Below, in pieces: positions 1,079-61,265 of a DNA stretch of 64,000 nt. Every line of letters starts with the position of its first letter. The stretch's first letter is position 1. The stretch covers positions 10,362-74,361 of the forward strand of contig CAJOGD010000005.1 in NCBI GenBank assembly GCA_905233975.1, in the 5' to 3' direction. The notes below the pieces were generated by a model. That model had not been told where the DNA came from. It did no database searches and saw only the letters and a program-made list of their open reading frames with translations. This DNA comes from an uncultured Alphaproteobacteria bacterium. Its GTDB lineage: Bacteria; Pseudomonadota; Alphaproteobacteria; Rs-D84. The position numbers and the translations under genes are program-made.

Positions 1079-1164
1079 AAATTTTTCACCATACCGCCAA
1101 CAACTGGTTATTTTTTGCCATTATAACTTAAAAACTTGCAATTTCCAGTATAAAGATTATAATT

Positions 1165-1480
1165 GGTCCGTCACGAAAGTGATGATGATTCTGAACCCGA
1201 TGCGGAATAGTCGTTTTGGACCCGGGGGCGGTACCCGGCACCTCCACCAATAAAACATATGGGGGTGTCATAGTTTCGACAGACGCAATAAAGGCATATG
1301 GCTGAATCCGACATGGTTGTCGTAAAAGACCAATAAAAATATGAATGCGAACGATAATCCTCGTCCGCTTGCAATGGCCGCCTAATAAAGGATTGGACAC
1401 CGTTGGCGATTGTTGACTGTGTCTGTTTTGGCTTTTTGCGGGGTTCGCCCGGGTACCTGGCACCAGAAACCCGGCATTTA
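1165..1480 (+). ncRNA. ssrA: tmRNA (ssrA), two-piece / circularly permuted gene
   Basis: Tag reading frame GCG AAC GAT AAT CCT CGT CCG CTT GCA ATG GCC GCC TAA (ANDNPRPLAMAA*) at 1347-1385. The acceptor 3' strand CACCTCC-A-CCA at 1239-1249 lies 11 nt UPSTREAM of the 5' acceptor strand GGGGGTG (1261-1267); they pair 7/7 with the conserved G3:U70 wobble. A TTGCAA-N16-TATAAT promoter sits near 1136-1163. The T-loop is non-canonical and the ends are approximate. Confidence 0.6.
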
Positions 1481-7092: not shown

Positions 7093-7178
7093 TCTGTTAC
7101 GACCGCGGCGCGGCATACCGCGACGGGTGGTTAGTAGCATTTGGAATCGGCTTGTAATTGTGAGATTATTCAAAAATT

Positions 7179-7214
7179 CACTAACCACTTACACTAATCA
7201 CTTACACTAATCAC
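7179..7214. repeat. CACTAAC heptamer array
   Basis: cactaaccacttacactaatcacttacactaatcac, in inverted orientation relative to the array at 7450-7481. Confidence 0.8.
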
Positions 7215-7218
7215 TTTT

Positions 7219-7251
7219 TCACTTGTTTTTTATTTTCGTTTTCTGATATAC
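7219..7251 (+). promoter_or_regulatory. sigma70-like promoter candidate (TTGTTT-N18-TATACT)
   Basis: Read directly from the sequence. Points toward the paralogue-1 gene. Confidence 0.3.
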
Positions 7252-7449
7252 TAATTTTGTCGGTGGGTGTTCCGCCGATGGGGATTCAAGACCCGATCAT
7301 AGGTTGTCCAAGGGACATAAAAAAACTCCAACCCGCACAGAGGTTGGAGGGATGCGAATAATGTAGGGCATTCGCCCATGCAAAATAAGCACGCAATCCC
7401 TATGAATTGTCTTGAACCTCCAACCACACGTTTTCGGTGGTGTTTTTTG

Positions 7450-7481
7450 CTAGTGTTAGTGTAAGTGGCTAGTGGTTAGTG
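7450..7481. repeat. TTAGTG heptamer array
   Basis: ctagtgttagtgtaagtggctagtggttagtg directly 5' of the RBS of paralogue 1. Confidence 0.8.
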
Positions 7482-7503
7482 AAAGAAAAAAGGGAGAGTC
7501 AAA

Positions 7504-8643
7504 ATGCAATTAAAAAAGTTTTTGTTATTCGGGTTGATGGCGGCGGTGTTGCCGGCGGTGGCCGAAGAAGCCGCGGACCGGAAAACAGCAACGTCGTTAA
7601 AATACGTCACACACGAATTGGAAACACGACAAAATAAATTTACCGCGGAACAAAACAAAGCCATGGAATACACAAATTCGGCCGGCATGGTGCAAAAACG
7701 CGCCGTCACATCGGATTTGGATAATGGCGGGACCGAATCGCTGCCCATGGTTGGTGGCGTTAATACAAAATTAAATCAAAAACAGGACGACATCGCCGCC
7801 GTCAACGATCACACTGCGGTCACATACACCGGAACGGCCGGGACAATCGGGGAAAAGGGTATTTACCAAACAACCGAATCGTATGCCGCCCAATCGGATA
7901 ACCTGATTGACGCGAAAACATTTAACGCCGCATTAAAGAACGGACTTGATAACGAATTCAAATGCAGGGATTATAAACCAGATACAGACCTTTGTTGGGT
8001 TTATTCGATTCATAATCCAACAACGGATAACACACTTTTGCCGCCCGGATATACCCCATTGGAATGGATTGAATCCGACGGGCATCAATATATTGATACG
8101 GGTTTAACATCTTTCAAAAACACAGATGTATTAAAAATGAAAATCCGGCCAACCAATGTGACCAGCACAACATTCCTTGCTTTTCAAAATCCAACCTCAG
8201 GCTTAGAACAGCAGGGTTTATTTTTGGCTGAATCTATGCTGAATTATCAATATGGGACGGCGCCCAGACTGAGAGCTCCGGTTGCCGTAAATACAGATTA
8301 TACAATAGAGGCAACCAATGGCAGACTGAAAGTCAACGAGACCACACGAACCGGCGAATTATATCCAGAATTCACAATAAATTATAACCTGCTTATTGGT
8401 ACGGCCGCGACCAGTAGCACACCGGAATCACGCATGTATTCTGGACGGATATATTATTTCCGATATGAAGATAAAAATGGCAATATACTGTTCAATGGCA
8501 TTCCCGCCAAGAACAGCGCCGACAAAGTTGGCGTGTACGATATGGTGTCGGGGCAATTCTTCCCGAGTATTCCGGCAAACACGAACTTCGCCGCCGGTCC
8601 AGAGTCAAATGATACTAACATTTATATTCCCCAGAATCAATAA
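7504..8643 (+). CDS. secreted variable-C-terminus protein, paralogue 1 (lectin/fibre-like?)
   Basis: Signal peptide MQLKKFLLFGLMAAVLPAVA. An N-terminal ~200 aa is ~85% identical to the ORFs at 26431 and 43634(-); the C-terminal half is divergent but ends in the invariant YIPQNQ. Contains the motif GYTPLEWIESDGHQYIDTG. Confidence 0.85.
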   Translation: MQLKKFLLFGLMAAVLPAVAEEAADRKTATSLKYVTHELETRQNKFTAEQNKAMEYTNSAGMVQKRAVTSDLDNGGTESLPMVGGVNTKLNQKQDDIAAVNDHTAVTYTGTAGTIGEKGIYQTTESYAAQSDNLIDAKTFNAALKNGLDNEFKCRDYKPDTDLCWVYSIHNPTTDNTLLPPGYTPLEWIESDGHQYIDTGLTSFKNTDVLKMKIRPTNVTSTTFLAFQNPTSGLEQQGLFLAESMLNYQYGTAPRLRAPVAVNTDYTIEATNGRLKVNETTRTGELYPEFTINYNLLIGTAATSSTPESRMYSGRIYYFRYEDKNGNILFNGIPAKNSADKVGVYDMVSGQFFPSIPANTNFAAGPESNDTNIYIPQNQ

Positions 8644-8767
8644 CGTCATACCGCCGCAAGGCGGTATCTTCTTATTACCGCCGCGGGCCGAAACTCCCCT
8701 TTCCATTGGAAAGGGGAGTTTGCTCTCTACAGGCCTGGGGAGATACCGGCTTGCGCCGGTATGACGA
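8644..8767. repeat. composite REP-like palindromic elements
   Basis: gtcataccgccgcaaggcggtatc hairpin, AAACTCCCCTTTCC-att-GGAAAGGGGAGTTT hairpin, and gagataccggcttgcgccggtatgac hairpin. Confidence 0.8.
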
Positions 8768-9148: not shown

Positions 9149-12100
9149 ATGAAGAAAATCGCTAGATTCCTTGGTTTTCTGGGCTTTTTTGGCGCGGCGC
9201 TTGGTGGTGTATTATTGTCGGACGCACATGCGGCCACCCCTTGTAACGCCGGCTACTACGGTATGGGTCCTGGTACTACCGAAGGTTGCACCGCTTGTCC
9301 AAGTCCCTATACCAACAGTGCATCTGGCTATAACAGGTACGAGGCGATGTGTTATGAGTCATGCGGCACAACGTGCGAAGATGTGTCAAACAAGTATGCC
9401 ACAACAACCGCCTATGGTTTGCCGACGGGATATACGGTTAATACGTCCCTGGGGACCAGCACACAGGTTTTATTTCAATCACTTGATGGCCTTGTTTCAT
9501 GCAGCAACCTCGACGGGATGTGTCCTTTGATTGTCACGTGCGATTCTTCATCCTCTAGTGATGCATGTAAAATAAGTTGGAAAAGCGTCGAATTTCTTGA
9601 TCTTAATGGTGAGATAATCGGGAAACCGCTCTATATTGCCTTTGGCCACTTTTGGAGTTCACAGAAAGTTCAAGGTGGATACGATACAGGAACCGGAACA
9701 AATATTTCATATTCCGCATTTTATCCGGTGTTTGATACGCCAACGGCACCAACCGTTGCGAACCGGCCTTTCTTGGGATATTCCAGGGAATCAAGTTATT
9801 ATGACGGAACGATTCCGGCCGAACCTTTATATAATCATGGTAAGTTGACCTCCGCAAACGCCTTGGCAACCGTTGATGGCGTAAGTGGCGAGCAGCCAGT
9901 GAGACTTTATGCGTTCTATGAATGTGAACCGGGGTATGAATGGAATATTAATGATAGCGAATGCCAACCAAAACACTATAAGACAGTACAGTATGATTGT
10001 AATGATAATGGCCATCATATCATACTAGATTATGATGGTGCGACGTTTGGCGAACGGTATGTTGTCCAAAACAACAATGTTGATATAACCGCTTGTACTC
10101 CGCATGTCCAGGGGACACAGATTGTAAAGTGGCAGATCACAAATAACAATGGCGGAACCGATGAACATCTTCCGGGGGCCCAGATTGAATGGGCTTACAC
10201 CCCCGCAGGGACCCCTACTTTCTATGCGGTATGGGGACAGACAACCTATAACATTACATATCACCCAAACGGTGGCACAGGGGATTCGGGCAATCATCCG
10301 GCAACGTATGATGCTACCGATTTGCCGCTTTCGATTACCTGGGTGCCGGAACGTGCCCACAGTGTTTTTGAAGGCTGGTGCAAGCGTGAGAATTTAACAG
10401 AATGTAGTGCGATACCATACGAAATACCAAGCGGAACGACGGGTGATATTAACCTGTATGCAAAATGGAGTTGCGACCCCGGATATATGCTGAGTGGTAA
10501 TTCATGTGTAGAGAGTAACGAATTGCCCGTAAGATATGAATGTGGCGACGGCGCCACCGGCGGGCCCGCAACCGATACGGCAACATACCATGACAGTTAT
10601 ACGGTCAGGGATGTTGATTATGCACTCTGTTCCAAAACGGGCTATACATTTAGTGGTTGGGCCTTTTCAGGCGGTGGTTTATATTACGGAGGGAATGTCA
10701 TCGATTCATGGATTTATACAACCGAACAAACATTCACCGCAAAATGGACGGCAAATGAATATCGCATAGACTATAAAAATATGGCACATTCCGCGCCGGT
10801 AAGTGGTATGCCGGATTCATACGAATACGGTGTGGGGGCTACAATAAACGGCACGCCAAGTCTTGCCAACGGGAGTTTTGAGGAATGGTGTCGCGACGCG
10901 ACTTTGGCGGACTGTGCCTTGCCACTGACCATCGCAACGGACGAAACCGGCGACAAGGTATTATGGGCAAAATGGAAATGTGCTACGGGATTCACACTTA
11001 GCAACGACAAGGATTCTTGCGAAGCGGACACATACACAGTGACGTATCAGTGCGGCGCACATGGCACCGGCGCCAATGTCACCGATACCGCAACATATCA
11101 TGCGAACTATGTTGTGCAGAATAGTAATGTAAATATCACCTGTACACCAGACAGCGGATACGAATTTACAGGTTGGAAATTTAGTGGTGATAATCGTGAC
11201 TATGTCCAAAATGACGAGATTTATTGGGAATACGCAAATAACAGCGAAACTCTGACGGCACAGTGGGATACAGCGACATATACCATTCAATATGAAAACA
11301 TGACCAATGCGACCGCTGCGCAGACCGGCATGCCGTCGAATTATACATACGGGGTTGGTGCAACAATTGACGGTGTTCCGACACGTGCAAACAGTGAATT
11401 TGCGGGTTGGTGCACAGATGAAACTTTGGAAAACTGTGCGATGACGCAAACCATTGGCACAACGGCAACAGGGGATAAAACATTCTGGGCAAACTGGGAA
11501 TGTTTGCCACCGTATCATTCGAATGCAAATGGCACCGCGTGCGTGGCCTGTGAGGCCGGGTATTATTGGAATGGCACCGATTGTACCACCGCCTGTCCAC
11601 CCGAATATCCATACAGTCGCAGCCCATATAACTGGAGTATCGATCAATGCTATAACTATTGCGACACCGCGACATGCGAAAGCTATAATGTGTCCGGTTT
11701 CCCAAATGGTTATACGGCAGAACCTATTGATTCTTCTTCAAAGCAGATTACATTCTATGGTAATGCCAGGAATGGTATAGATGCGTGCGATGGAACGGTC
11801 AAGTATTGCGCGTATGGGTTTGCTTCAACCCCGGGGGCATTACCATCGACATTGTATAAACCAATGACGGTGCCGGTTGACTTCTATGGTCATATGCCAC
11901 AAGAAAACCTTGGGACGTTGTATATATTTGGTAGTCGTGCCGGCGGTAGCAGCATAGATATTAACACCGGCGATGTATGGAGTCAGATTGTCGGCCCCGG
12001 TCAGCAGACACAGGTAATAAACAACACACAAACCGGCCTTACATATCAATACACGCCTATATTCTATCCCGCGGATATGGCGCCTAATGCCGATGTGACG

Positions 12101-15100
12101 GGATATACGTTCGATGGATACTATTATCCAGAAAACGGCAGCACCCAATATGTAGGCAGCGACTATGTATTGAATGCGACGAACGCCCTGGCTGTTATTA
12201 ATAGTGGCCAAACCGGCGGATACAATATCCCGCGCAAACTGTATGCGACGATGAATCATGGTTATAGCCTTGGCTGTTATAAAGTGAGTTTCAATAACAG
12301 TTGGCATGGTGGAACGCCGACAACCAGTACGTTAAGTTTCTATAAAAAGGGAACCAGTTGGTATGCGGGTACAGATTCAAATTGTACGGGCACACCAATC
12401 GCAAATCCAAGCGTGGCGAATGAATTACCAACCAAAACCAACGCAACGTTTACCGGGTATTATGATGAGTCTGGACCAGATTTGATGATTTTTGATGCAA
12501 ATGGTGCGGCAACCACGTACGCAAATATTTGGACGATTACAAGTGACACAACATTGTATGCGCAATATACATGCGACGCGAATGCACATCAAACATCGAA
12601 TGACGCATGTGTTGTGTGTACCGCGCCGACCGCATGTTGGGATAACAATACCGAACAATGCGTTGCATGTGCAGTAGTTGATCACACAATAACATTGGAC
12701 AAGAATGTTGGTGGTTTGCAAGGTGATGACAGCAGCCCGTCGATATTGTACACTGTGGAAGGTCAAGGTGTTTATACGGACCTTGCAACCGAAAATCCAT
12801 TTACCGCATTAACAGCGGTGCCGACCAAGTATGCAATCGTTACATTTAATCATTGTGACGGCACAAATGGGGCGTGTGATTCGACGGCCAATACCGAAAC
12901 CAAAAATTCTGATTTCCCATTCGTAGGTTTTTATGACACAACCTCCGCCATCAATGTTATATCAAACAATGGTAATTTGACCAATGATGGTTATACCAAT
13001 GCCATTGGGTTGCATGGTGATGCGACGTGGTATGCACGTTGGGGAATACATGGAATGATTGCCCATTGGCCGCAAAACCCAACGCGTTCCGGTTATAACT
13101 TTGTTGCATGGAAAGATGAACCTAACTGTACGGGTAATACGATGACATCGACCAGTTATATAGATACAGATACGACGCTGTATGCATGTTGGACGATGAA
13201 TACATCTTATGAATGCCAGGTGTATTGCGATGCGACGTTAAGTACATGTCCTTATCAAAATGCAAGCTGCGAATATGATGAAACGCAATACCAATCGGGA
13301 CATAACAATGGTGTTTCTGGGGCGCCATGCCTTGACGACGATGGGCATGAAATCGTCGCGGTGGCATGTCCGATTAGTAATGTCAGTTGCACACAGGCCG
13401 GGTATATCTGGGTATCAACAGACGAACAGTGCGAACAGTGCACATGCACACTGGGAACGGGCGTAGATACATGCACACCGTCTTCGGTTGGTAATCAGTG
13501 CACCGCGACGGGTTCGTGCGCCACCGGATACGTGAACTTTACACCGAATTGTTCCGGGACAACATGCGAACCTTACTGTGGTGCGAATACATTTACGGTA
13601 AATTACGAATGCGGAACACATGGTGCCGCGGCATCGGGCTATGACATGTATAACACCGCGACGTATGGTGCCGGGTACAAGGTCGCACATCAGTCATACA
13701 CCAGTTCCAATGTGATTGCACTGTGTAATCCGAACACCGGTTATGTGCTTGCGAATCCGACATGGAAATTAGAAGGCACATCTTACACCGGCAATACGGG
13801 TGATGTGATTGCGTCGTGGCAATATAGCATGAGTGCGCCAAAATTCATCGCACAGTATGATTGCGATACGGCGAATTTCTGGTTCCATAATTCATCAAGT
13901 GACACGTGCGTTCTGTGTAATGGCGCAAATGAATATTGGAATTCCACAACCGAAAGTTGCGGCCAATGCGGCGCGGGAACGTATCCGAATGCCGCACACG
14001 ATGCATGTATCAACGAAGGTCAATATGAAATAACCCTTAACAAGAATGTTAATTCTGGGGCGGTGCATGGGGTTGACGGGCAAACAACACTTTACACAGT
14101 GCACAATACCGGCGTTTATCGCGACGCGGCAAGAACGGCCGAAATGACGACCGCCGGCAATCCTTTGACCGAAGGAAATTTACCAAAGAAATATGCAATT
14201 GTGACATTCAATCACTGTGATGTTGATAACGATATACTCTGCACCAATCCGGCAAACACCGAAGACGTTGTTAATGCCTACTTTGCGTTCAATGGTTTCT
14301 ATCAAGATACGACCACAGGTTCAAAGTACATAAACGAGTATGGGTATATTACCGACGGTGCAAATGGCGGTATGACCGTTGGTGCGGGCTATACAGACAA
14401 CAATCATGTATGGTATGCGCACTGGGCCGCCCAGGGTATATTGAACGGATTCCCGGCCAATCCAACACGTGCGGGATATACTTTTGTTGAATGGCGGACG
14501 TTACCGAACGGAATGGGAACCGTTGTACCAAATAATCAGACATACACTGTGACGGCGGATACAACATTGTATGCAAATTGGGCTGCGAATGCATACGATA
14601 TACATTATGTGTTGAATGGCGGTGAAAACTATCATGGCGCCCCAACAAGTTATTCATATGGCACAGGTGCACAAATCAATGGCACCCCGACCCGCGACAA
14701 CAGTCAATTCATCGGTTGGTGTGATGATGCGGCTTTGACACAAAATTGCGACAAGGTGCGCGTAATAAGCGGAACCGAAACAGGCGACAAGACGTTCTAT
14801 GCGAAATGGACCTGCGATTGTGGTTATTCGGCAACCCAAAATGGCCAGGGTTGTGTTGCGAATACCATTACCGTAAATTATCAAAGCGAATATGGGACGG
14901 TGCCTGCATCGGGGACATGCACGTATAATGATGTTAATGGATTCACATTGGCGTCTGCAATTGACGCCCAGGGCCACGACTTTAGTGGTTGGGCGATGAA
15001 TTATCAACGCTTTAATGCCGGCCAAACCGTTGCGTGTAATTACACGACATTTGGTGTGTGCAATGGTTCTGTGAACGCCAACGCAATTTGGGGCGAAGCA

Positions 15101-17806
15101 AACACGTACAGAATAGATTATATAATGAACGGTGGTGTAAACTATGACGGCGCGCCAACAAGTTATATGTATGGCATTGGTGCACAAATTAATGGGACCC
15201 CAACCCGCGCCAACAGCCAATTTGTGGCATGGTGTGATGATGCCAATTTAAAGGTGAATTGCGCAAGGAACAAAATCATGGACTCAAATGATTCCGGCAA
15301 CAAGGTATTCTATGCCAAATGGTCTTGTGATTGTGGTTATGCGCCGACGTCAAATGCAGAGGCGTGTGATGCGAATACCATTATCCTGAATTATAATAAT
15401 GGTGGTCATGGCAATGCGCAGTTACCGGCGGCATATTGTACTTATGGCAATAATTTCCAATTGTACAACGCAATTTCGGCCACTGGTTATGAATTCAGCG
15501 GTTGGTCGGTAAATAATGATACCATATCGGCGGGCGCAACAGTTGCCTGTGATAATCAAACCCTTGGTGTTTGTGATGGTTCTGTGGTGATTAGTGCCAC
15601 ATGGGGGACAAATACCATAACACTTGATTGGGACGAAAATCATGGGACAGAGATTCCGAATGGTTCTTGCCAATATGGTGATACACTGGCACTGGCGTCT
15701 GAATTACCAAATCGCACAGGTTATACGTTCAGTGGTTGGGAATTGGTTAATAGCATCGTAAAGGCCGCGGGAACAACGGTTAGTTCGGGTTGTACCGAAA
15801 CATACACCGGCGTCACAAGCGGAACAAGCCATGGAATCAGGGCTGTATGGTGCCACAATTGTATCCAACCGGCGGTGCAAAATGTATGTTCGTTGAATAC
15901 AGAAGGTCCGGGCGATTGTGTGTATACCTATACTGAATGTCCCCAAGGATATACGCTGTATATCCCACAGGAAGCGCCTTGGAACCCGAGTTGTGTTCAA
16001 AATCAATACACCATTACGTATTCCGCCAATGGTGGTACAGGTGCGGACCAAACACAAAATGTGTTCTTTGGATCCACGTTCGTGACAAGACCGCGGTCGA
16101 TATTCACTAATTCTGGATATATGTTGACGAAGTGGCGCATTGCAGATGCAACGGCCACGTATGACCCGGATACAAGTTATACTTATGACATCAACGGCAA
16201 CACAACGTTAGAGGCGACATGGGAAAGATGCACCTGTTCGTATGCGGGCAACAGCGGTGTCCAAGCCTGTGATCCTTATTCAACGGCAAATAGTACATGT
16301 GGCGGAACGGCAACATGTTTGGCACACTTTGTAAATCCGACTGTCACATGTGCCAATGACGGACCGGCGTGTACGGCGACATGTACAGAATGTGGTGCGG
16401 GTTATATATCGGTAAATGATAACTGTGACCCATGCGACCCGGGACATTATCAATCGGGCAACGAATGTCCACAATGTTCGGGCAATACAATTGCGCCGAA
16501 TCCGGGTGCGACATCTTGCGTGGAATGTCCGGAATATACATTGGCAAATGCGGAACACACACAATGTTTGTATTGTCCGACGGGTTCTATCTTGGTGAAC
16601 GGTGTTTGTGAACAGTGTACGGCGGGACATTATCAATCCGGTAATGATTGCCCAATATGCCCGGGCAACACGATTGCCGCGAATCCGGGTGCGGCATCTT
16701 GTACGGAATGTCCGGAATATACATTGGCAAATGCGGAACACACACAATGTTTGTATTGCCCGACGGGTTCTATCTTGGTGAACGGTGTTTGTGAACAATG
16801 TGCGGCGGGGCATTATCAATCCGGTAATGATTGCCCAATATGCCCGGGCAACACGATTGCCACGAATCCGGGTGCGACATCTTGTACGGAATGTCCGGAA
16901 TATACATTGGCAAATGCGGAACACACACAATGTTTGTATTGTCCGACGGGTTCTATCTTGGCGAACGGTGTTTGTGAACAATGTACGGCGGGACATTATC
17001 AATCCGGTAATGATTGCCCAATATGCCCGGGCAACACGATTGCCGCGAATCCGGGGGCGGCATCTTGTACGGAATGTCCGGAATATACCGTTGCGAATCA
17101 AGATCATACCGCATGCGCGTCATGTCCGGCGGGTTCTATCTTGGTGAACGGTGTTTGTGAACAGTGTGCGGCCGGTACATATCAATCGGGCAATAGTTGT
17201 GTCCAATGTCCCGCGGGTAAAACATCATATGCTGGCGCAACATCGATAAATGATTGCTTTATTGATCCGGGCACATGTGCCCCAGACGAACACGTCGAAC
17301 AAGGCGAATGTGTTAGCAACACCAAGGAATGCACTGTGCCGCATGCAACGTCCGCAAAACGCGAATGGAATGCATCGATTGGAACATATGGCCCATGCGT
17401 TGTTGAAACCTGTGACGAAGCCAATGGTTATCGTGTGTCGGGCAATGCATGCGTAAAAGATTCCTGTGTTGTGGAACATGGTAGCGCCGAAACAGAATGG
17501 AACGTTGCCGACAATCGGTGGGAATGCATTGTCACGAAATGTGATCCGGGCTATGAAAGAAGCGCCGATGACAAATCTTGTGTTGAATGCTATAACCGTC
17601 GCGTTGATGGCGAAATCGCGGTCAGCAGTTATGTATCCGAATGCGAAATTGCCGCATGTATGTACCAAGGTCAAAAGTACACTTTGGACGGTAATGAATG
17701 TCGCCTTATCTGTGAAGAAAAGACCGATGAAACCGGGTCAATGATTTGGGATAATATAAGGAAGCAATGCGTCCGGACATGCAACAAGGGTTATAAGATG
17801 TGGTAG
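9149..17806 (+). CDS. giant secreted Cys-rich surface protein with Listeria-Bacteroides (Flg_new-type) repeats
   Basis: 2885 aa with signal peptide MKKIARFLGFLGFFGAALGGVLLSDAHA. At least 12 modules match the List_Bact repeat consensus (GYTFSGW ... LYAKW). The C-terminal third is CxxC-rich, including four near-identical 61-aa tandem repeats. Confidence 0.85.
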   Translation: MKKIARFLGFLGFFGAALGGVLLSDAHAATPCNAGYYGMGPGTTEGCTACPSPYTNSASGYNRYEAMCYESCGTTCEDVSNKYATTTAYGLPTGYTVNTSLGTSTQVLFQSLDGLVSCSNLDGMCPLIVTCDSSSSSDACKISWKSVEFLDLNGEIIGKPLYIAFGHFWSSQKVQGGYDTGTGTNISYSAFYPVFDTPTAPTVANRPFLGYSRESSYYDGTIPAEPLYNHGKLTSANALATVDGVSGEQPVRLYAFYECEPGYEWNINDSECQPKHYKTVQYDCNDNGHHIILDYDGATFGERYVVQNNNVDITACTPHVQGTQIVKWQITNNNGGTDEHLPGAQIEWAYTPAGTPTFYAVWGQTTYNITYHPNGGTGDSGNHPATYDATDLPLSITWVPERAHSVFEGWCKRENLTECSAIPYEIPSGTTGDINLYAKWSCDPGYMLSGNSCVESNELPVRYECGDGATGGPATDTATYHDSYTVRDVDYALCSKTGYTFSGWAFSGGGLYYGGNVIDSWIYTTEQTFTAKWTANEYRIDYKNMAHSAPVSGMPDSYEYGVGATINGTPSLANGSFEEWCRDATLADCALPLTIATDETGDKVLWAKWKCATGFTLSNDKDSCEADTYTVTYQCGAHGTGANVTDTATYHANYVVQNSNVNITCTPDSGYEFTGWKFSGDNRDYVQNDEIYWEYANNSETLTAQWDTATYTIQYENMTNATAAQTGMPSNYTYGVGATIDGVPTRANSEFAGWCTDETLENCAMTQTIGTTATGDKTFWANWECLPPYHSNANGTACVACEAGYYWNGTDCTTACPPEYPYSRSPYNWSIDQCYNYCDTATCESYNVSGFPNGYTAEPIDSSSKQITFYGNARNGIDACDGTVKYCAYGFASTPGALPSTLYKPMTVPVDFYGHMPQENLGTLYIFGSRAGGSSIDINTGDVWSQIVGPGQQTQVINNTQTGLTYQYTPIFYPADMAPNADVTGYTFDGYYYPENGSTQYVGSDYVLNATNALAVINSGQTGGYNIPRKLYATMNHGYSLGCYKVSFNNSWHGGTPTTSTLSFYKKGTSWYAGTDSNCTGTPIANPSVANELPTKTNATFTGYYDESGPDLMIFDANGAATTYANIWTITSDTTLYAQYTCDANAHQTSNDACVVCTAPTACWDNNTEQCVACAVVDHTITLDKNVGGLQGDDSSPSILYTVEGQGVYTDLATENPFTALTAVPTKYAIVTFNHCDGTNGACDSTANTETKNSDFPFVGFYDTTSAINVISNNGNLTNDGYTNAIGLHGDATWYARWGIHGMIAHWPQNPTRSGYNFVAWKDEPNCTGNTMTSTSYIDTDTTLYACWTMNTSYECQVYCDATLSTCPYQNASCEYDETQYQSGHNNGVSGAPCLDDDGHEIVAVACPISNVSCTQAGYIWVSTDEQCEQCTCTLGTGVDTCTPSSVGNQCTATGSCATGYVNFTPNCSGTTCEPYCGANTFTVNYECGTHGAAASGYDMYNTATYGAGYKVAHQSYTSSNVIALCNPNTGYVLANPTWKLEGTSYTGNTGDVIASWQYSMSAPKFIAQYDCDTANFWFHNSSSDTCVLCNGANEYWNSTTESCGQCGAGTYPNAAHDACINEGQYEITLNKNVNSGAVHGVDGQTTLYTVHNTGVYRDAARTAEMTTAGNPLTEGNLPKKYAIVTFNHCDVDNDILCTNPANTEDVVNAYFAFNGFYQDTTTGSKYINEYGYITDGANGGMTVGAGYTDNNHVWYAHWAAQGILNGFPANPTRAGYTFVEWRTLPNGMGTVVPNNQTYTVTADTTLYANWAANAYDIHYVLNGGENYHGAPTSYSYGTGAQINGTPTRDNSQFIGWCDDAALTQNCDKVRVISGTETGDKTFYAKWTCDCGYSATQNGQGCVANTITVNYQSEYGTVPASGTCTYNDVNGFTLASAIDAQGHDFSGWAMNYQRFNAGQTVACNYTTFGVCNGSVNANAIWGEANTYRIDYIMNGGVNYDGAPTSYMYGIGAQINGTPTRANSQFVAWCDDANLKVNCARNKIMDSNDSGNKVFYAKWSCDCGYAPTSNAEACDANTIILNYNNGGHGNAQLPAAYCTYGNNFQLYNAISATGYEFSGWSVNNDTISAGATVACDNQTLGVCDGSVVISATWGTNTITLDWDENHGTEIPNGSCQYGDTLALASELPNRTGYTFSGWELVNSIVKAAGTTVSSGCTETYTGVTSGTSHGIRAVWCHNCIQPAVQNVCSLNTEGPGDCVYTYTECPQGYTLYIPQEAPWNPSCVQNQYTITYSANGGTGADQTQNVFFGSTFVTRPRSIFTNSGYMLTKWRIADATATYDPDTSYTYDINGNTTLEATWERCTCSYAGNSGVQACDPYSTANSTCGGTATCLAHFVNPTVTCANDGPACTATCTECGAGYISVNDNCDPCDPGHYQSGNECPQCSGNTIAPNPGATSCVECPEYTLANAEHTQCLYCPTGSILVNGVCEQCTAGHYQSGNDCPICPGNTIAANPGAASCTECPEYTLANAEHTQCLYCPTGSILVNGVCEQCAAGHYQSGNDCPICPGNTIATNPGATSCTECPEYTLANAEHTQCLYCPTGSILANGVCEQCTAGHYQSGNDCPICPGNTIAANPGAASCTECPEYTVANQDHTACASCPAGSILVNGVCEQCAAGTYQSGNSCVQCPAGKTSYAGATSINDCFIDPGTCAPDEHVEQGECVSNTKECTVPHATSAKREWNASIGTYGPCVVETCDEANGYRVSGNACVKDSCVVEHGSAETEWNVADNRWECIVTKCDPGYERSADDKSCVECYNRRVDGEIAVSSYVSECEIAACMYQGQKYTLDGNECRLICEEKTDETGSMIWDNIRKQCVRTCNKGYKMW
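16445..17175. repeat. tandem repeat, period 183 bp, about 4 copies, >95% identical
   Basis: The gggacattatcaatccggtaatgattgcccaatatgcccgggcaac unit recurs at 16445, 16628, 16811 and 16994. It encodes the repeated peptide CEQCTAGHYQSGNDCPICPGNTIAANPGAASCTECPEYTLANAEHTQCLYCPTGSILVNGV. Confidence 0.9.
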
Positions 17807-26031: not shown

Positions 26032-26139
26032 AATTTAACCTTTCCATGGAACAACAGAATAACACCGGCCGATGTAAAAAGCAAATAGTTATTACAACAT
26101 TAACGGGCGCGTAAAAAAGTGCTTGCGTTATAAAAGCAC

Positions 26140-26378
26140 ATTCTGTTAGAATAATGATTGAGCCAAGTGGGAACTTGGTTCGGGGCTGTGAGAAGCCCGT
26201 CGTATCCGGTGCAAAGCATCGCAATCCATTGTGATTTCCCAAGTGTTTTGCACCGTTATAGGTTTGACCCCGATGTTGGGGTGCCGTCGGTTATAATGCC
26301 CCTGGCAAAAGGCCGCGGAATCAACGATACGATGATTTCTCAACACCCCGACCGCGTGGTTTCCATTGCGGCACTTAT
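26140..26378 (+). promoter_or_regulatory. conserved structured 5' leader of paralogue 2
   Basis: About 85% identical to the reverse complement of 44995-45235. Stems covary (GGGCT-gtgaga-AGCCC vs GGGC-tatagcag-GCCC; CCCC-gatgtt-GGGG vs CCCC-aatgtt-GGGG). Contains TATAAT. Confidence 0.6.
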
Positions 26379-26410
26379 TTTAGTGTAAGTGTTAGTGGGT
26401 AGTGTAAGTG
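26379..26410. repeat. TTAGTG heptamer array
   Basis: ttttagtgtaagtgttagtgggtagtgtaagtg directly 5' of the RBS of paralogue 2. Confidence 0.8.
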
Positions 26411-26430
26411 AGAAAAAAAAGGGGAGAAAC

Positions 26431-27597
26431 ATGTTTTTAAAAAAGTTTTTGTTGTTCGGGTTGATGGCGGCGGTATTGCCGGCGTTGGCGGAGGAAGCCG
26501 CGGACCGGAAAACCGCAACGTCGCTTAAATACGTCACACACGAATTGGATACGCGTCAGGATAAATTTAGTGCGGAAGCGAACAAGGCCATGGAATATAC
26601 AAATTCGGCCGGGGACGTGCAAAAACGTGCGGTCACATCGGAGCTGGGGACCAGCACGTCCGACACATCACTGCCCATGGTTGGTGGTGTGAATACTAAA
26701 CTGGCCACAAAACAAGACGACATCGCCCCCGTCAACGATCACACTGCGGTCACATATACTGGGCAAAGCGGCAGTATCGGACAAAAGGGTATTTACCAAA
26801 CAACCGAATCGTATGTTGAACAAAGCGATAATTTAATCGACGCAAAAACATTCAACGCGGCATTAAAGACGGGACTTGATAACGAATTCAAATGTAGGGA
26901 TTATAAACCGGATACAAATCTTTGTTGGGTTTATTCTATACATAATGAAACCGAAGATAATACGCTTGTCCCAGAGGGATACACGCCACTTGAATATATC
27001 CAATCCGACGGATCGCAAATGATTGATACCGGTATCGATGGCTTTGATCCCGGTGATTGGGAAATTTATGTAAAATGGATGATAACCGGCGAACCAACCG
27101 GTGATTATCCATATATATGCGGTATATATGATGGTGAATCATACAATACATATAGAATTATATTAGACCATACCAGCACTGCCCAATATCTTGTTAATGG
27201 GAACAGTAGAGCTGGTGGTGGCAGCGCACGCGTTTCTGCACCGGCAAATGTGATTCATGAAGGAACAATCCATAATGGTTATGTCCTGTTTGATGGTGTG
27301 CGATATAATACGCCGACACAGGGGATGCAGGGTGGCACAACCAGCGTTAATAGAACTATTGGTCTATTTGGTTTTGTAGCTAGTACACCAAAAATTGTTG
27401 GTCGCATGTATGCCGCGTATGCAAAACAAGATGGTGTAATGAAGTATAACTATATACCCGCGCGCCGCGATAGTGATAACAAGGTTGGCATGTGGGATAC
27501 GGTTAGCCGAACATTTAAAACAAATTCCGCCAACGGTAATGACTTTGCCCCGGGGCCGGTTGTGCAGAACAATGTCTATATTCCGCAAAATCAATAG
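26431..27597 (+). CDS. secreted variable-C-terminus protein, paralogue 2
   Basis: Starts at MFLKKFLLFGLMAAVLPALA with RBS aaggggag. Conserved N-terminal half, divergent C-terminal half, ends VYIPQNQ. Confidence 0.85.
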   Translation: MFLKKFLLFGLMAAVLPALAEEAADRKTATSLKYVTHELDTRQDKFSAEANKAMEYTNSAGDVQKRAVTSELGTSTSDTSLPMVGGVNTKLATKQDDIAPVNDHTAVTYTGQSGSIGQKGIYQTTESYVEQSDNLIDAKTFNAALKTGLDNEFKCRDYKPDTNLCWVYSIHNETEDNTLVPEGYTPLEYIQSDGSQMIDTGIDGFDPGDWEIYVKWMITGEPTGDYPYICGIYDGESYNTYRIILDHTSTAQYLVNGNSRAGGGSARVSAPANVIHEGTIHNGYVLFDGVRYNTPTQGMQGGTTSVNRTIGLFGFVASTPKIVGRMYAAYAKQDGVMKYNYIPARRDSDNKVGMWDTVSRTFKTNSANGNDFAPGPVVQNNVYIPQNQ

Positions 27598-34110: not shown

Positions 34111-34136
34111 TAAAGAGACCCCGCGTGAAACCACCC

Positions 34137-34163
34137 ATAAAAAACGCTATGCGTTTTTTATGG
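34137..34163. terminator. bidirectional intrinsic terminator
   Basis: cataaaaaacgc-tat-gcgttttttatg, downstream of the minus-strand gene at 34206-35381. Confidence 0.6.
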
Positions 34164-34205
34164 GGTCCGATATCGCGGGGTAATGAGACCAAAAGGAAAC
34201 TTTGT

Positions 34206-35381
34206 TTAATCCCTAACTTTCCACAGCCAACAATTCGCGTCGGTGTATTCCGCGGGGTTGCTTGTCGAATCCGATCCGGCGCATTCCATTTTATTCTGCT
34301 TTCTGGCCAAACCTTTGGCCAAAGAATCACCGGTGACAATTTTGGTTTGATCGGCCGCCTTCCAGTTATTTGCCGTTCCATTAAACGAGGTGGAATATTG
34401 GTCGGTTGCGGTCTGGGTATTACCGGTCCCACTGGTGGACCATTCCAACGTATTCGATACGGACGCGTTTAACGTGCTATACACATCTTTCAATAATTCC
34501 AATGAAACAAGTGCGTTTTTAACAAGTCCCTGATTTGCAGAAGTATCAGTTCCGAACGTTCCGGCCGTAAATGTGCTAAGTGTTGTGTTGTTCGCGCCCG
34601 TCACATAGTTAATGACCGCGGGTGCATTGGTCGTGGTGGTAAGGGCCTGACTGCCCCCGCCAGTGGTATAAACCTTGTCCGGGGAACCGGCACTGGTCCC
34701 CAATACGAGCGCCTGATTGGCCGCCGGAACAAAATTGGTGCTCGATGTCTTGGCGGGCAATTTATTTTGTTTTAACGCCAAACCATAGGCCAGAGCCTGA
34801 CCAGTGACAAGGCTGGCCGCATGGTCGGACGGCCAGTGGCCGGTCCCAGTGGTAGAAAAGCTTGTTGAATAACTGGTGGTTCCAATTTGATCATTGTTAC
34901 TGCCGCTGGTGGACCAACTCAACGCCGTCCAACTAAGGCTACCAATGCTATTGTTGAGCTCTGAATATACATCGTGCACTAATTGTAATGATGCCAACGC
35001 GCCTTCGACGTCTCTTCGGTCAAGTCCGTTGGAACTACTAATATCTCCGTCGCCCACCACATATTTACCTATCGCCTCCGCGTCCTCTTCCTTGGTCAAC
35101 GGATCCTCTAACCCACCGGCGATGTATAACTTTCCAACCTCGCCCAGGGTTTTGGTCAGGCTAATTGTCTGGCCGGTCACCGGCTCTGGCATGCCATCAT
35201 AAAATTCTGCGTGTTCATCATCGCTACTTAATGGGCCAAGTTTATCCTGTTTTATCTCATCAACATAGTATTTAGATGCAACGGTTTTTTTTGCAATATC
35301 CTCCGCCCTGGGGGCCGCAAAGGCCGATGATGTGGCAACCGTCGCCATTGTTCCCGCAATAAGATAATAACGTGTTTTCAT
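34206..35381 (-). CDS. secreted Thr/Ser-rich protein with internal duplication (hypothetical surface protein)
   Basis: Signal peptide MKTRYYLIAGTMATVATSSAFA. Two ~70-aa internal repeats (LSWSTSGSNNDQIGTTSYSTSF... / LEWSTSGTGNTQTATDQYSTSF...). Confidence 0.6.
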   Translation of the reverse strand: MKTRYYLIAGTMATVATSSAFAAPRAEDIAKKTVASKYYVDEIKQDKLGPLSSDDEHAEFYDGMPEPVTGQTISLTKTLGEVGKLYIAGGLEDPLTKEEDAEAIGKYVVGDGDISSSNGLDRRDVEGALASLQLVHDVYSELNNSIGSLSWTALSWSTSGSNNDQIGTTSYSTSFSTTGTGHWPSDHAASLVTGQALAYGLALKQNKLPAKTSSTNFVPAANQALVLGTSAGSPDKVYTTGGGSQALTTTTNAPAVINYVTGANNTTLSTFTAGTFGTDTSANQGLVKNALVSLELLKDVYSTLNASVSNTLEWSTSGTGNTQTATDQYSTSFNGTANNWKAADQTKIVTGDSLAKGLARKQNKMECAGSDSTSNPAEYTDANCWLWKVRD

Positions 35382-35502
35382 TTTATGTGTCCCTTCCTTT
35401 TATATTTTTGCTGTTGTTCCTTTTACGAATCGGAGTCTAGCAAAGTTTTGAAAATTAAGGCAAGCACTATTTTCAACCGCCCGGAAATCCGCGGCTTTGC
35501 GG

Positions 35503-35572
35503 TCCGATGACGCGATGGTGCGCCGCCGCATTCGCGCCCGTCGCACCATTGGCCTTTGGCGGTATGACGGCG
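35503..35572. repeat. REP-like element (ggtgcgccgccgcattcgcgcccgtcgcacc + ggcggtatgac)
   Basis: Long palindrome plus the family core. Confidence 0.6.
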
Positions 35573-43466: not shown

Positions 43467-43626
43467 CGTCATACCGCGGTAACGCGGTATCCCCCTGGGC
43501 TTTACCGAGAATTAAATCTCTGCCGGCCCGACGGGATTCTGGTTTCGCTCGGCTTACTGCCTGCGCGCAAATTTGTAGTTGTTTGAACTTCGCTTACGCT
43601 CGTTCTCACATACAAATTTTCGCCGG
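43467..43626. repeat. ~160-bp composite repeat, copy A (direct repeat of 44834-44990)
   Basis: gtcataccgcggtaacgcggtatc ... ccgacgggattctggtttcgctcggcttactgcctgcgcgcaaatttgtagttgtttgaacttcgcttacgctcgttctcacatacaaattttcgcc. Identical to copy B over the last ~95 bp. Confidence 0.9.
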
Positions 43627-44809: not shown

Positions 44810-44833
44810 ATCGCTCTCCTTTTCTTTTTTGTC

Positions 44834-44990
44834 GTCATACCGCCGAAAGGCGGTATCTCCTCAGGCTTTCCTGAGAATTAGTCCGCGACGGTTCCGACGG
44901 GATTCCGGTTTCGCTCGGCTTATTGCCTGCGCGCAAATTTGTAGTTGTTTGAACTTCGCTTACGCTCGTTCTCGCATACAAATTTTCGCC
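44834..44990. repeat. ~160-bp composite repeat, copy B
   Basis: Same orientation as copy A. Together the two copies bracket paralogue 3. Confidence 0.9.
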
Positions 44991-44994
44991 GAAT

Positions 44995-45235
44995 CGCCGC
45001 AATGGAAACCACGCGGTCGGGGTGTTAGCAAATCATTTGTGTCAAAGATTCCGGTGGCCTTTTGCCAAGGCATTATAACCACAGGCACCCCAACATTGGG
45101 GTAAATCCATAAAACGGTGCAAAACACATGGGAAACCATATGGATACGATGCTTTGCACCGGACACAAATGGGCCTGCTATAGCCCCGAACCAGATTCCC
45201 ATCTGATTCAATGTGTATTCTAACAAAAATTGCAA
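44995..45235 (-). promoter_or_regulatory. conserved structured 5' leader of paralogue 3
   Basis: Its reverse complement aligns to 26140-26378 with covarying stems. Confidence 0.6.
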
Positions 45236-45312
45236 AAACGGGTCAAGGGATTTTTTTATGCGGCGATAAAAAACGGGGCAGACGCCCCGTATAATAACAT
45301 ATTTCAATTATA

Positions 45313-58393: not shown

Positions 58394-58991
58394 ATTGTCT
58401 ACTGGGTATTTTAATAAACTGGCACAATTAAAAATTCAACAGATATTTCCTGAATGGAAATTAGAATTGGTTGACAAACCTGATTTACAGGATGAAACAA
58501 ATAATATCGGAATTGAAGTTACTATTGCAAAAGATAAAGTAGATGGAATTTTTGATAGTGTATGGAATGAGTGGGCAGGGAAAGGAATTACATCAAACGA
58601 ATTTCGGGACAAATTTACAAATACTTATTTTAAAGAAAAAATTATTCCTGATATGGAACATCCTGTATGTGTCAAAGTGAACGGTAACTTAGATTCCGTA
58701 ATCATGAAAATTTTGGGTGCAATTAAAACAAAATCAAAAAAATTTAATGGTTACAAAAAATTTAATAAAAATGGATTATTCATTTATTGTCCTGAACCTT
58801 TATGGGAAGAACAATTTTCTGTGTTAAAACAACGTATATATGAAGGAATTTACCCATTTGATTTTTTTATAATAAGTATGACAAATAAACTGCTTTTGAT
58901 TGAAAATAATGAACTTAAAATATACGACATTGATTTTGATAAAATTGAACAATTAACACAAGAATCTTTAGATTTTTCACAAAATCATTAA
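58386..58991 (+). CDS. hypothetical protein
   Basis: Starts MVYRLSTGYF, overlapping the previous stop (ATGGTATATAG). Confidence 0.4.
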   Translation, partial: VYRLSTGYFNKLAQLKIQQIFPEWKLELVDKPDLQDETNNIGIEVTIAKDKVDGIFDSVWNEWAGKGITSNEFRDKFTNTYFKEKIIPDMEHPVCVKVNGNLDSVIMKILGAIKTKSKKFNGYKKFNKNGLFIYCPEPLWEEQFSVLKQRIYEGIYPFDFFIISMTNKLLLIENNELKIYDIDFDKIEQLTQESLDFSQNH

Positions 58992-59105
58992 ATTCTCCGT
59001 TTCGGACCCATATAGAACCATACAGAAACCATTAAAATTTGACACAGGATACCCTGAAACACGTTTTTATGGGGATTTATTATTGTTTGATTAAATGGTG
59101 TTTCT
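58991..59105. repeat. direct repeat, left copy (flanks ATPase-nuclease module)
   Basis: aattctccgtttcggacccatatagaaccatacagaaaccattaaaatttgacacaggata is 57/61 identical to 61157-61217. A further tttattattg.ttgatta..tggt segment is also shared. Confidence 0.85.
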
Positions 59106-60957: not shown

Positions 60958-61156
60958 CGTAAAAATCCTATTGTTCCATTGTATGATAATGTATTTTTTT
61001 TACTTGACAAGCCTATTATATCATTTTTTGTAAAAAAAAACAGGGGTTAATTAAAATTTAATTAAATTCCCCTTTGTTGCCAGTAATTATATCACATTTT
61101 AACAAAAAAGTCAAATTTTTATTGTTTCTGCGCTGGTTTGTTAGAAAAAAATCGTA

Positions 61157-61265
61157 AATTCTTCGTTTCGGACCAATATATAACCATACAGAAACCATTA
61201 AAATTTGACACAGGATAAGTTAAACCACCATTGGATTGGTGGTTTATTATTGATTATGGTTTTAC
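61157..61265. repeat. direct repeat, right copy
   Basis: aattcttcgtttcggaccaatatataaccatacagaaaccattaaaatttgacacaggata plus the hairpin aaaccaccattggattggtggttt, a probable int terminator. Confidence 0.85.

Follow-up and report, generated by a model that had tools for sequence, protein, structure and literature searches.

Two stretches of a 64,000-nucleotide (nt) segment of an uncultured alphaproteobacterium (contig CAJOGD010000005.1, positions 10,362 to 74,361 of the forward strand; hereafter the window) are members of a family of pseudoknotted leader RNAs of about 215 nt, and not a local duplication. Copy A lies at 26141-26372 on the plus strand, ahead of a gene called here paralogue 2, and copy B at 45228-44996 on the minus strand, ahead of paralogue 3. 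Judged from the sequences, each copy is probably a cis-acting 5' leader, which would serve as a transcription attenuator of the riboswitch type for the secreted-protein gene behind it. A conserved cis-regulatory 5' leader with maintained helices had been predicted from the two copies alone. This original prediction is supported by about 170 homologous sequences from many species, by covariation and by the geometry of promoter and terminator.

The two copies in the window

The copies were aligned by BLASTN over 236 columns with 80.5% identity (E ~1e-51), in agreement with their MAFFT alignment; the predicted similarity is real, although its figure of ~85% identity over ~230 nt was slightly high. 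Exactly two occurrences of the 29-mer CACCCCGACCGCGTGGTTTCCATTGCGGC were counted in the window, and none in 100 shuffles. A profile search of the 64-kb window returned only copies A and B of this RNA, copy B being scored at E = 9.7e-48 by the nhmmer profile of the family. The conserved block opens with a TG-extended TAGAAT -10 box and closes at ...CATTGCGGC (26372 in copy A, 44996 in copy B). Upstream of it the flanks are unrelated, as had been claimed, with an LPG-synthase-like gene at one copy and RNase J at the other. On the 3' side, copy A runs directly into short TAGTG-type repeats and then a ribosome-binding site (RBS), and copy B into an additional 159-nt repeat element (44833-44991) placed ahead of the RBS. 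Compared with shuffled sequences, the two copies fold with z = -6.5 and -4.5, the opposite strand being weaker. Ten pairs predicted by RNAalifold from the two sequences are changed on both sides between copies A and B with pairing kept, and the differences between the copies are concentrated in compensatory pairs.

Search for further members of the family

Three diverged copies were taken from contigs carrying homologues of the downstream proteins, and a search pattern, TGATTTNNNAACACCCCGRCC, was drawn from five sequences. Scanning species-representative genomes with this pattern gave at least 101 loci, about 85 of which were confirmed by the nhmmer profile; some 10 matches in other phyla were discarded as chance matches. 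A second scan, of metagenomes, relied on the 5' pattern GGTTCGGGGCTGTNNNARGCC, so that the 3' end and the tail were not pre-selected, and 84 of its 120 loci were full-length copies. The search for further copies that had been proposed with the original prediction, run here with pattern scans and nhmmer, thus returned about 85 and 84 additional full-length copies. Members measure from ~215 to 400 nt, some having insertions of 100-150 nt in or after one of the helices (P2, below).

All confirmed copies come from metagenome-assembled genomes (MAGs) labelled Candidatus Enterousia, Alphaproteobacteria or proteobacterium, obtained from rumen, gut or faeces, and each genome carries at least 3-5 copies. 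Ca. Enterousia belongs to the order Rs-D84, whose genomes are mostly below 1 Mb, and the Rs-D84 hosts are uncultured gut and rumen bacteria with few regulators (PMC12306168).

The family is apparently undescribed so far. Searching the window and 11 loci with typical members against Rfam 15 (4227 models) at the gathering score returned tRNA and transfer-messenger RNA (tmRNA) matches only, and at E <= 10 the two window copies gave only chance-level matches (best E = 1.8). We found no earlier description in the literature on Enterousia, Rs-D84 or RF32 combined with riboswitch or structured RNA.

Folded core and covariation

The elements of the folded core are as follows in copy A:

26160-26181 (+): H0, 5' hairpin GAGCCAAGU-GGGA-ACUUGGUUC, with a GNRA tetraloop at 26169-26172
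26183-26198 (+): H1, GGGCU-GUGAGA-AGCCC (family consensus GGGCU-GUNNNA-AGCCC)
26189-26193 (+): 5' strand of the pseudoknot, UGAGA, in the H1 loop, with the 3' strand UCUCA at 26338-26342 (+)
26199-26205 (+): H2, GUCGUAU, paired with AUACGAU at 26327-26333 (+), long-range, directly after H1, closing the multi-helix core
26207-26255 (+): P2, outer stem CGGUGCAA/UUGCACCG and inner hairpin with conserved CAUCGyAAUCC and a pyrimidine-rich bulge UUUCCC
26267-26282 (+): P3, hairpin ACCCCG-AUGU-UGGGGU
26284-26318 (+): P4, stem CCGUCGG/CCGCGG and distal motif UUAUAAUGC..GCAAAAGG, containing an internal TATAAT
26334-26336 (+): linker GAU
26344-26352 (+): tail CACCCCGAC, the 3' strand of the alternative helix ALT (below)

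and in copy B:

44996-45209 (-): the whole RNA
45209-45188 (-): H0
45186-45171 (-): H1
45170-45164 (-): H2 5' strand, paired with 45041-45035 (-)
45161-45115 (-): P2
45102-45087 (-): P3
45085-45051 (-): P4
45030-45026 (-): 3' strand of the pseudoknot
45024-45016 (-): tail
45017-44996 (-): terminator hairpin T

Covariation was measured on a structure-blind MAFFT alignment (A4) of 73 copies, using the structure that we had assigned, against 500 shuffles and against controls in which the pairing partner was slid by 1-3 columns. Standard pairs filled 93.0% of the cells, against 77.1 +/- 0.4% after shuffling and 36-47% after sliding. Cells changed on both sides numbered 691, against 207 and 65-144, respectively, and the covariation score was 0.521, against 0.210 and 0.080-0.105. 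The observed covariation values were attained in none of the 500 shuffles. Changes on both sides were seen at 40 of the 53 pairs, as in a conserved structured domain of the sensor type. G-U pairs are frequent, with for example 22, 27 and 28 cells at three pairs, which identifies this strand as that of the transcribed RNA.

The two helices singled out in the original prediction, GGGCT..AGCCC and CCCC..GGGG, both exist and correspond to H1 and to hairpin P3. H1 covaries at pairs 40-51 (GC:66/AU:5) and 41-50 (CG:65/UA:6). It is a hairpin as had been proposed, and its loop is not free, being pseudoknotted to the 3' region: the three N's of the H1 loop pair with the N's of a 3' segment GAUUU-NNN-AAC. 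The central pairs of this pseudoknot (45-283, 46-282 and 47-281) are each canonical in 73 of 73 copies with 2-4 pair types, namely CG:30/GC:20/AU:20/UA:3, GC:47/AU:26 and CG:25/AU:24/GC:12/UA:12. Since H1 is itself supported by two covarying pairs and its loop pairs with the 3' strand, the arrangement is an H-type pseudoknot. Six of the seven H2 pairs change on both sides, most positions displaying all four Watson-Crick types (H2 reads AUUUGUG/CACAAAU in copy B). Within H2, helices P2, P3 and P4 meet in a junction with many invariant unpaired bases.

The outer stem of P2 covaries (UA:50/CG:15 and GC:48/AU:14); its inner structure was derived from RNAalifold on the two window copies and from manual reading. 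At every one of the 8 P4 pairs, changes on both sides were found in at least one member, and the distal part of P4 takes three alternative forms. The upper-stem pairs of H0 vary on both sides in 20-25 of the 73 sequences, and its tetraloop is mostly GGGA, with variants GUGA, GGAA, GAGA and GAAA. The conserved unpaired motifs are CAUCGUAAUCC, GGGGUGCC, GUAUAUAUAAAG (or hairpin-inserted variants), GGAAUCA, UGAUUU and AACA.

Several other pairings were considered and rejected. A fully nested fold joining the 5' GGGG to the 3' CCCC, obtained from the two-sequence RNAalifold prediction, could not be kept as the main fold, since the 3' CCCC is fixed and G40 covaries with C51 within H1. A pairing of the 5' UCGGGG with the 5' arm of P3 was dropped on account of variants at column 37 without a matching change. 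The H0 loop could not be assigned to the pyrimidine bulge of P2, the change of H0 loop at locus L084 being compensated in the terminator and not in P2. Finally, an AAUCA/UGAUU hairpin proposed by RNAalifold was backed only by A or G opposite U and clashes with the strongly supported H2.

Terminator and the two partners of a single strand

The elements of the 3' region of copy A are:

26275-26283 (+): 5' strand of ALT, GUUGGGGUG, which is the 3' arm of P3 plus the next base
26351-26372 (+): terminator hairpin T, ACCGCGUGG-UUU-CCAU(U)GCGGC, followed by CACUUAUUUU up to 26382 (RNAalifold)

An intrinsic terminator is found family-wide: 122 of 147 members (83%) have a hairpin with a free energy of at most -6 kcal/mol and at least 5 U in the next 9 nt. 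These hairpins average -10.1 kcal/mol over the family and about 8 base pairs (bp). In copy A the hairpin is bulged and has 8 bp, its first 2-3 bases being common to ALT.

The strand GUCGGGGNG (GUCGGGG) has two partners, the upstream CCCCGA(C), with which it forms P3, and the 3' tail CN'CCCCGAC(C), with which it forms ALT. In minimum-free-energy folds of the segment from 148 members, P3 has 5-9 bp with extensions of differing length. Its fifth pair is GC in 110, GU in 23, AU in 13 and never A-C, counts that come from predicted folds and are biased towards pairing. ALT was paired in 98.2% of cells of a combined alignment of 147 sequences, against 36-55% with slid partners. Its variable pair is UA:92, AU:37, GU:15, CG:1, UG:1 and other:1. 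In the set whose tail had not been selected, the N/N' pair was U-A in 21, A-U in 38, G-U in 18, C-G in 1, U-G in 1 and mismatched in 1. The single C-G, U-G and C-A cases suggest intermediates.

The terminator stem opens with the bases that end ALT (A293, C294 and C295 of alignment A4), those nearest to the U-tract. P3 and ALT are mutually exclusive, each is supported by covariation and ALT overlaps the terminator, which is the organisation of a riboswitch expression platform. As the tail begins one base after the 3' strand of the pseudoknot, ALT could zip onward from the pseudoknot and displace the 5' arm of P3. A comparison of the energies of the two states by constrained folding was set aside as invalid, ALT being pseudoknotted relative to H2.

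Complementarity between H0 and the terminator

The tops of H0 and of the terminator hairpin are complementary when wobble pairs are allowed (consensus UGGGAAU and AUUUCCA). When both came from one copy, their duplexes had a mean energy of -7.44 kcal/mol, against -5.98 +/- 0.23 for mismatched copies, and this was reached in 0 of 10,000 permutations, or in 130 of 10,000 when the test was restricted to the 25 copies without the consensus loop; sequence relatedness inflates both tests. Compensated changes were observed at L084, where GUGA faces UUGC in a 12-bp duplex, and at L104, L075, L094 and L103. Contact between the two hairpin tops might hinder nucleation of the terminator, or else close the ends of the terminated RNA.

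Promoter and position of the leader

The putative promoters of the two copies are:

26123-26152 (+): copy A, -35-like TTGCGT at 26123-26128, an 18-nt spacer and TG-extended -10 box TAGAAT at 26147-26152
45217-45246 (-): copy B, TTGACC, an 18-nt spacer and TG-extended TAGAAT at 45222-45217

A promoter scan called the copy B promoter, which has the TG extension and 10 of 12 matches. That of copy A was not called by the simple scan, and its box was read from the sequence. Of 74 copies, 42 have a TAnAAT box 6-7 nt ahead of H0; the box is TG-extended in 38 of the 74, with a -35 that is usually CTTGAC-like. Transcription most likely starts at the RNA's own promoter just before H0, with a predicted start at about 26158-26160 in copy A and 45209-45211 in copy B. 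At the other end, always in the same orientation, the RBS and start codon come a median of 41 nt past the end of the model.

The TATAAT box reported within the block is indeed present, at 26293-26298, where it is an RNA motif in the P4 loop and not a promoter: the closest -35-like hexamer is 22 nt off and the scan did not call it. A leader peptide was also rejected, the sole recurrent NUG lying inside H2 and opening a frame of 18 codons in copy A and 3 in copy B, which is not conserved.

Downstream genes and strain comparison

By a crude test, 108 of 137 distinct downstream open reading frames (ORFs) start with a signal-peptide-like segment, and several of the others have mis-called starts. 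Many of the proteins share the N-terminal motif ..TSKxYVDTxxAxKQDKI... Nothing significant was found for the downstream proteins in Pfam, PHROGs, NCBIfam or a PDB sequence search. The RNA is not confined to the paralogues whose control had been proposed, and precedes many unrelated secreted-protein genes.

Behind copy A the gene is reached as follows:

26383-26433 (+): spacer with TAGTG-type repeats, an A8 run, the RBS GGGGAG at 26421-26426 and the ATG of paralogue 2 at 26431

The paralogue 2 protein has 193 homologues, and the two with a named source are entered as 'MAG: Alphaproteobacteria bacterium'. Its AlphaFold model has a mean pLDDT (predicted local distance difference test) of 62 with a confident C-terminal half, a beta-sandwich similar to laminin-G and ConA-like lectin domains and to CBM40 (Foldseek E ~1e-4). 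The model gives a weak hint that the downstream proteins may bind glycans.

In a related strain (locus L001) whose flanks are 97-99% identical to those of the window, the copy A leader (26128-26380) is 100% identical and the protein (26431-27597) 86-87% identical. We infer from this difference that the leader is under purifying selection and the gene diversifying.

Another surface-protein gene region, 34206-35381, has 81.5% DNA identity between the same two strains (compared over 34112-35533), and the surface-protein genes appear hypervariable between strains. This gene lies on the minus strand and encodes a signal-peptide protein with ..KTVASKYYVD..KQDK... It has a plain promoter (TTGCCT..TAGACT), a short 5' untranslated region and no structured leader. 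From its sequence, not every member of the superfamily appears to be under leader control.

Proposed mechanism and alternative explanations

Once transcribed, the RNA would fold with its H1 loop paired to the 3' segment, beside H2 enclosing the P2/P3/P4 junction. As long as P3 holds, the tail would stay free, the terminator would form and transcription would stop. If the tail instead zips on from the pseudoknot and displaces the 5' arm of P3, the terminator would be crippled and the polymerase would enter the gene. P3 would then act as anti-antiterminator, ALT as antiterminator and T as terminator, a signal bound by the conserved core, be it a small molecule, an ion, a protein or an RNA, setting the balance between both states. 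The complementarity between the tops of H0 and terminator would provide a second contact affecting terminator folding.

Several points weigh against this attenuator. The support for ALT comes down to one covarying pair whose types are largely lineage-specific, with perhaps as few as 2-3 independent changes, and the pattern used in the first scan fixed the 3' tail of the first sequence set. The overlap between ALT and the terminator is just 2-3 nt, below that of many characterised riboswitches. ALT crosses H2, making a pseudoknot, and nearest-neighbour energies cannot rank both states. Within the window, the sequence of copy A reads as a weak intrinsic terminator, and copy B has no U-tract, the repeat at 44833-44991 lying exactly at the U-tract site of other members; a simple terminator scan called neither copy. 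As the U-tract was lost to the repeat insertion, copy B may read through constitutively. H0-terminator complementarity is missing at L058, L039 and L110. Finally, the regulated genes have no metabolic theme pointing to a ligand.

Other explanations must be set against the same data. That the two copies are a recent duplicate carried along with paralogous genes and devoid of RNA function, the refuting case raised with the original prediction, fits the likeness of the coding regions behind them (81% over 501 nt). This reading can be practically dismissed, given the ~170 homologues of many species, found ahead of unrelated genes, and massive covariation far past the shuffle and slide controls, down to the compensatory differences between the window copies. 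An RNA thermometer, or a simple element masking the RBS, would suit surface proteins of a host-associated organism, and the C-rich strands could in principle pair with a G-rich RBS. Yet the element ends with a terminator 20-60 nt ahead of the RBS, which lies outside the conserved block, and rumen or gut temperature is stable. Known thermometers are short with little conserved sequence, and an RNA of such complexity is unlikely to be the thermosensor once suggested; we hold this whole alternative to be highly improbable. A self-cleaving or processing RNA, whether ribozyme or RNase substrate, that matures or destabilises the mRNA in the manner of glmS, also seems very unlikely. Ribozymes too typically have complex pseudoknotted folds with many invariant bases, but no Rfam ribozyme model matched even at E <= 10, and the conserved terminator and the competition between P3 and ALT are explained by attenuation, not by cleavage.

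More weight can be given to a stand-alone small RNA (sRNA) gene, whose terminated product of ~215 nt would act in trans or bind a protein, expression of the gene behind being incidental read-through. The RNA has its own promoter and terminator and several copies per genome, and the H0-terminator complementarity would close both ends of a released RNA. However, the orientation is constant, the median of 41 nt to the RBS and start leaves no space for a second promoter, and a stable product would not need the exclusive pairings P3 and ALT, one of which overlaps the terminator. Helix sequences also differ among the copies of one genome, so that they would have no common target. All in all we consider the sRNA gene unlikely. 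A further possibility, to be entertained as a variant of the attenuator itself though not as its likelier form, is that the conserved core senses an antiterminator protein or another RNA, as in leader antitermination or T-boxes. The regulated genes are alike in localisation (secreted or surface) and not in metabolism, and proteins could bind at the invariant single-stranded motifs. Other genes of the family are also preceded by a leader of a second, unrelated class whose platform follows the same logic (see below). On the other hand, known antiterminator proteins bind short hairpins, and the size, the pseudoknot and the multi-helix junction are closer to metabolite aptamers. No partner gene was seen adjoining the element, and the hosts, with genomes below 1 Mb, have few regulators (PMC12306168).

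Comparison with known regulatory RNAs

On sequence grounds, the RNA would form an orphan riboswitch-like leader class. In the ZTP (pfl) riboswitch, the 3' tail is pseudoknotted to an upstream sub-domain, in competition with the terminator. In platform logic this appears to be the closest system, the comparison having been tested by the Rfam scan. Like terminating riboswitches including ZTP, the leader RNA combines a covarying core, a pseudoknot bridging a distance, a 3' strand common to an aptamer-side helix and the terminator, and an RBS and gene behind. Unlike ZTP, it has no Rfam match, is much larger (~215-400 nt), has other helices and conserved bases, and adds a local decoy for the competing strand (the 5' arm of P3) as well as the complementarity between 5' hairpin and terminator.

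Cyclic di-GMP riboswitches of classes I and II (GEMM) occur in several copies per genome, before genes of adhesins, pili and surface or secreted proteins, and class II has a pseudoknot. The leader RNA resembles them in being multi-copy and in preceding surface- or secreted-protein genes; it differs in size and architecture, and RF01051 and RF01786 were not matched at E <= 10. With T-boxes (200-300 nt) it shares the length, a 5' stem loop engaged in long-range pairing and a 3' choice between terminator and antiterminator. However, RF00230 was not matched, there is no T-box sequence and no aminoacyl-tRNA synthetase or amino-acid genes downstream, and the partner of the 5' hairpin is its own terminator and not a tRNA.

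Orphan riboswitch candidates and large structured bacterial RNAs have been detected by comparative genomics (Weinberg et al. 2017, PMC5737381). Like those candidates, the leader RNA was recognised through its conservation and covariation, in uncultured sequence derived from the rumen, and has a complex fold, but it is not among the Rfam 15 families that came from those surveys. Its clear attachment in cis to a gene sets it apart from ROOL or GOLLD.

Second leader class, repeats and other neighbours

As had been stated, paralogue 1 (7504-8643) has a different upstream region. It is preceded by another leader, class X (7222-7455 on the plus strand), which is conserved and unrelated to the RNA studied here. 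Class X also occurs at L003 (4141-4368 and 14503-14729), L004 (7261-7470), L008 (9588-9814) and L157 (6515-6741), and had no match in Rfam (best E = 0.06). Besides a promoter of its own, it carries a hairpin CUCCAACC-loop-GGUUGGAGG, and a second CCUCCAACC abuts an intrinsic terminator (ACCAC..GGUGGU, then U's). Its sequence suggests the same logic of anti-antiterminator, antiterminator and terminator. With class X standing before sister genes, one gene family may be controlled by several signals.

A dispersed, hairpin-rich repeat of ~80-160 nt (..GTCATTCCGGCGAAAGCCGGAATCCCGTCGG..CTCAGGAAAGCCTGAGGAGATACCGCCTTTCGGCGGTATGAC), called here the Z element, gave 13 nhmmer matches in the window and related loci. 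It is often found between leader and RBS, and flanks paralogue 3 on both sides. Its occurrences in the window are:

44833-44991 (-): 159 nt
43467-43625 (-): just after the gene, 159 nt, 87% identical to the former
8644-8752: partial

Elsewhere it was found at L004 (7514-7596), L008 (9890-9969), L003, L012 and L096. Tandem TAGTG or TAAGTG repeats stand between leader terminator and RBS at 26383-26412 and 7450-7485, and also occur at 1047-1067, in L008 (18945-18965) and in L079. At paralogue 1 an inverted copy of the TAGTG repeat lies upstream (7177-7215), so that the class X leader is bracketed by inverted repeats. From their arrangement, the TAGTG repeats might serve as a binding site for a protein or mark the two ends of an invertible segment.

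Three further features were recorded in the window:

1132-1478 (+): permuted two-piece alphaproteobacterial tmRNA (Rfam RF01849, 172.6 bits), which fits the taxonomic placement
9149-17806 (+): ORF of 2885 amino acids with tandem repeats of 183 nt (16398-17246) and 513 nt (14585-15394)
58989-59073 and 61155-61239: 85-nt direct repeat, 85% identity, 2.2 kb apart, each before the end of a minus-strand gene

The counterpart of the 2885-amino-acid ORF in L001 has weak Flg_new matches, and the product is probably a large surface protein.

Significance

About 170 sequences, a core with a pseudoknot and an expression platform that can be read make the leader RNA a well-defined orphan riboswitch candidate. 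Going further, and only tentatively, a ligand-binding riboswitch of a new class might place the lectin-like and rapidly evolving surface repertoire of these genome-reduced gut symbionts under one chemical signal, with terminated leaders in addition pairing in trans with nascent ones. If true, trans pairing between the consensus tops of H0 and terminator would bring about cross-talk, or mutual exclusion, at the RNA level among the surface-protein genes. Keeping at least 3-5 copies of a leader of ~215 nt costs a genome below 1 Mb a great deal. It points to the leader as marking the main control point of the presentation of the cell surface, which is probably one of glycan-binding adhesins.

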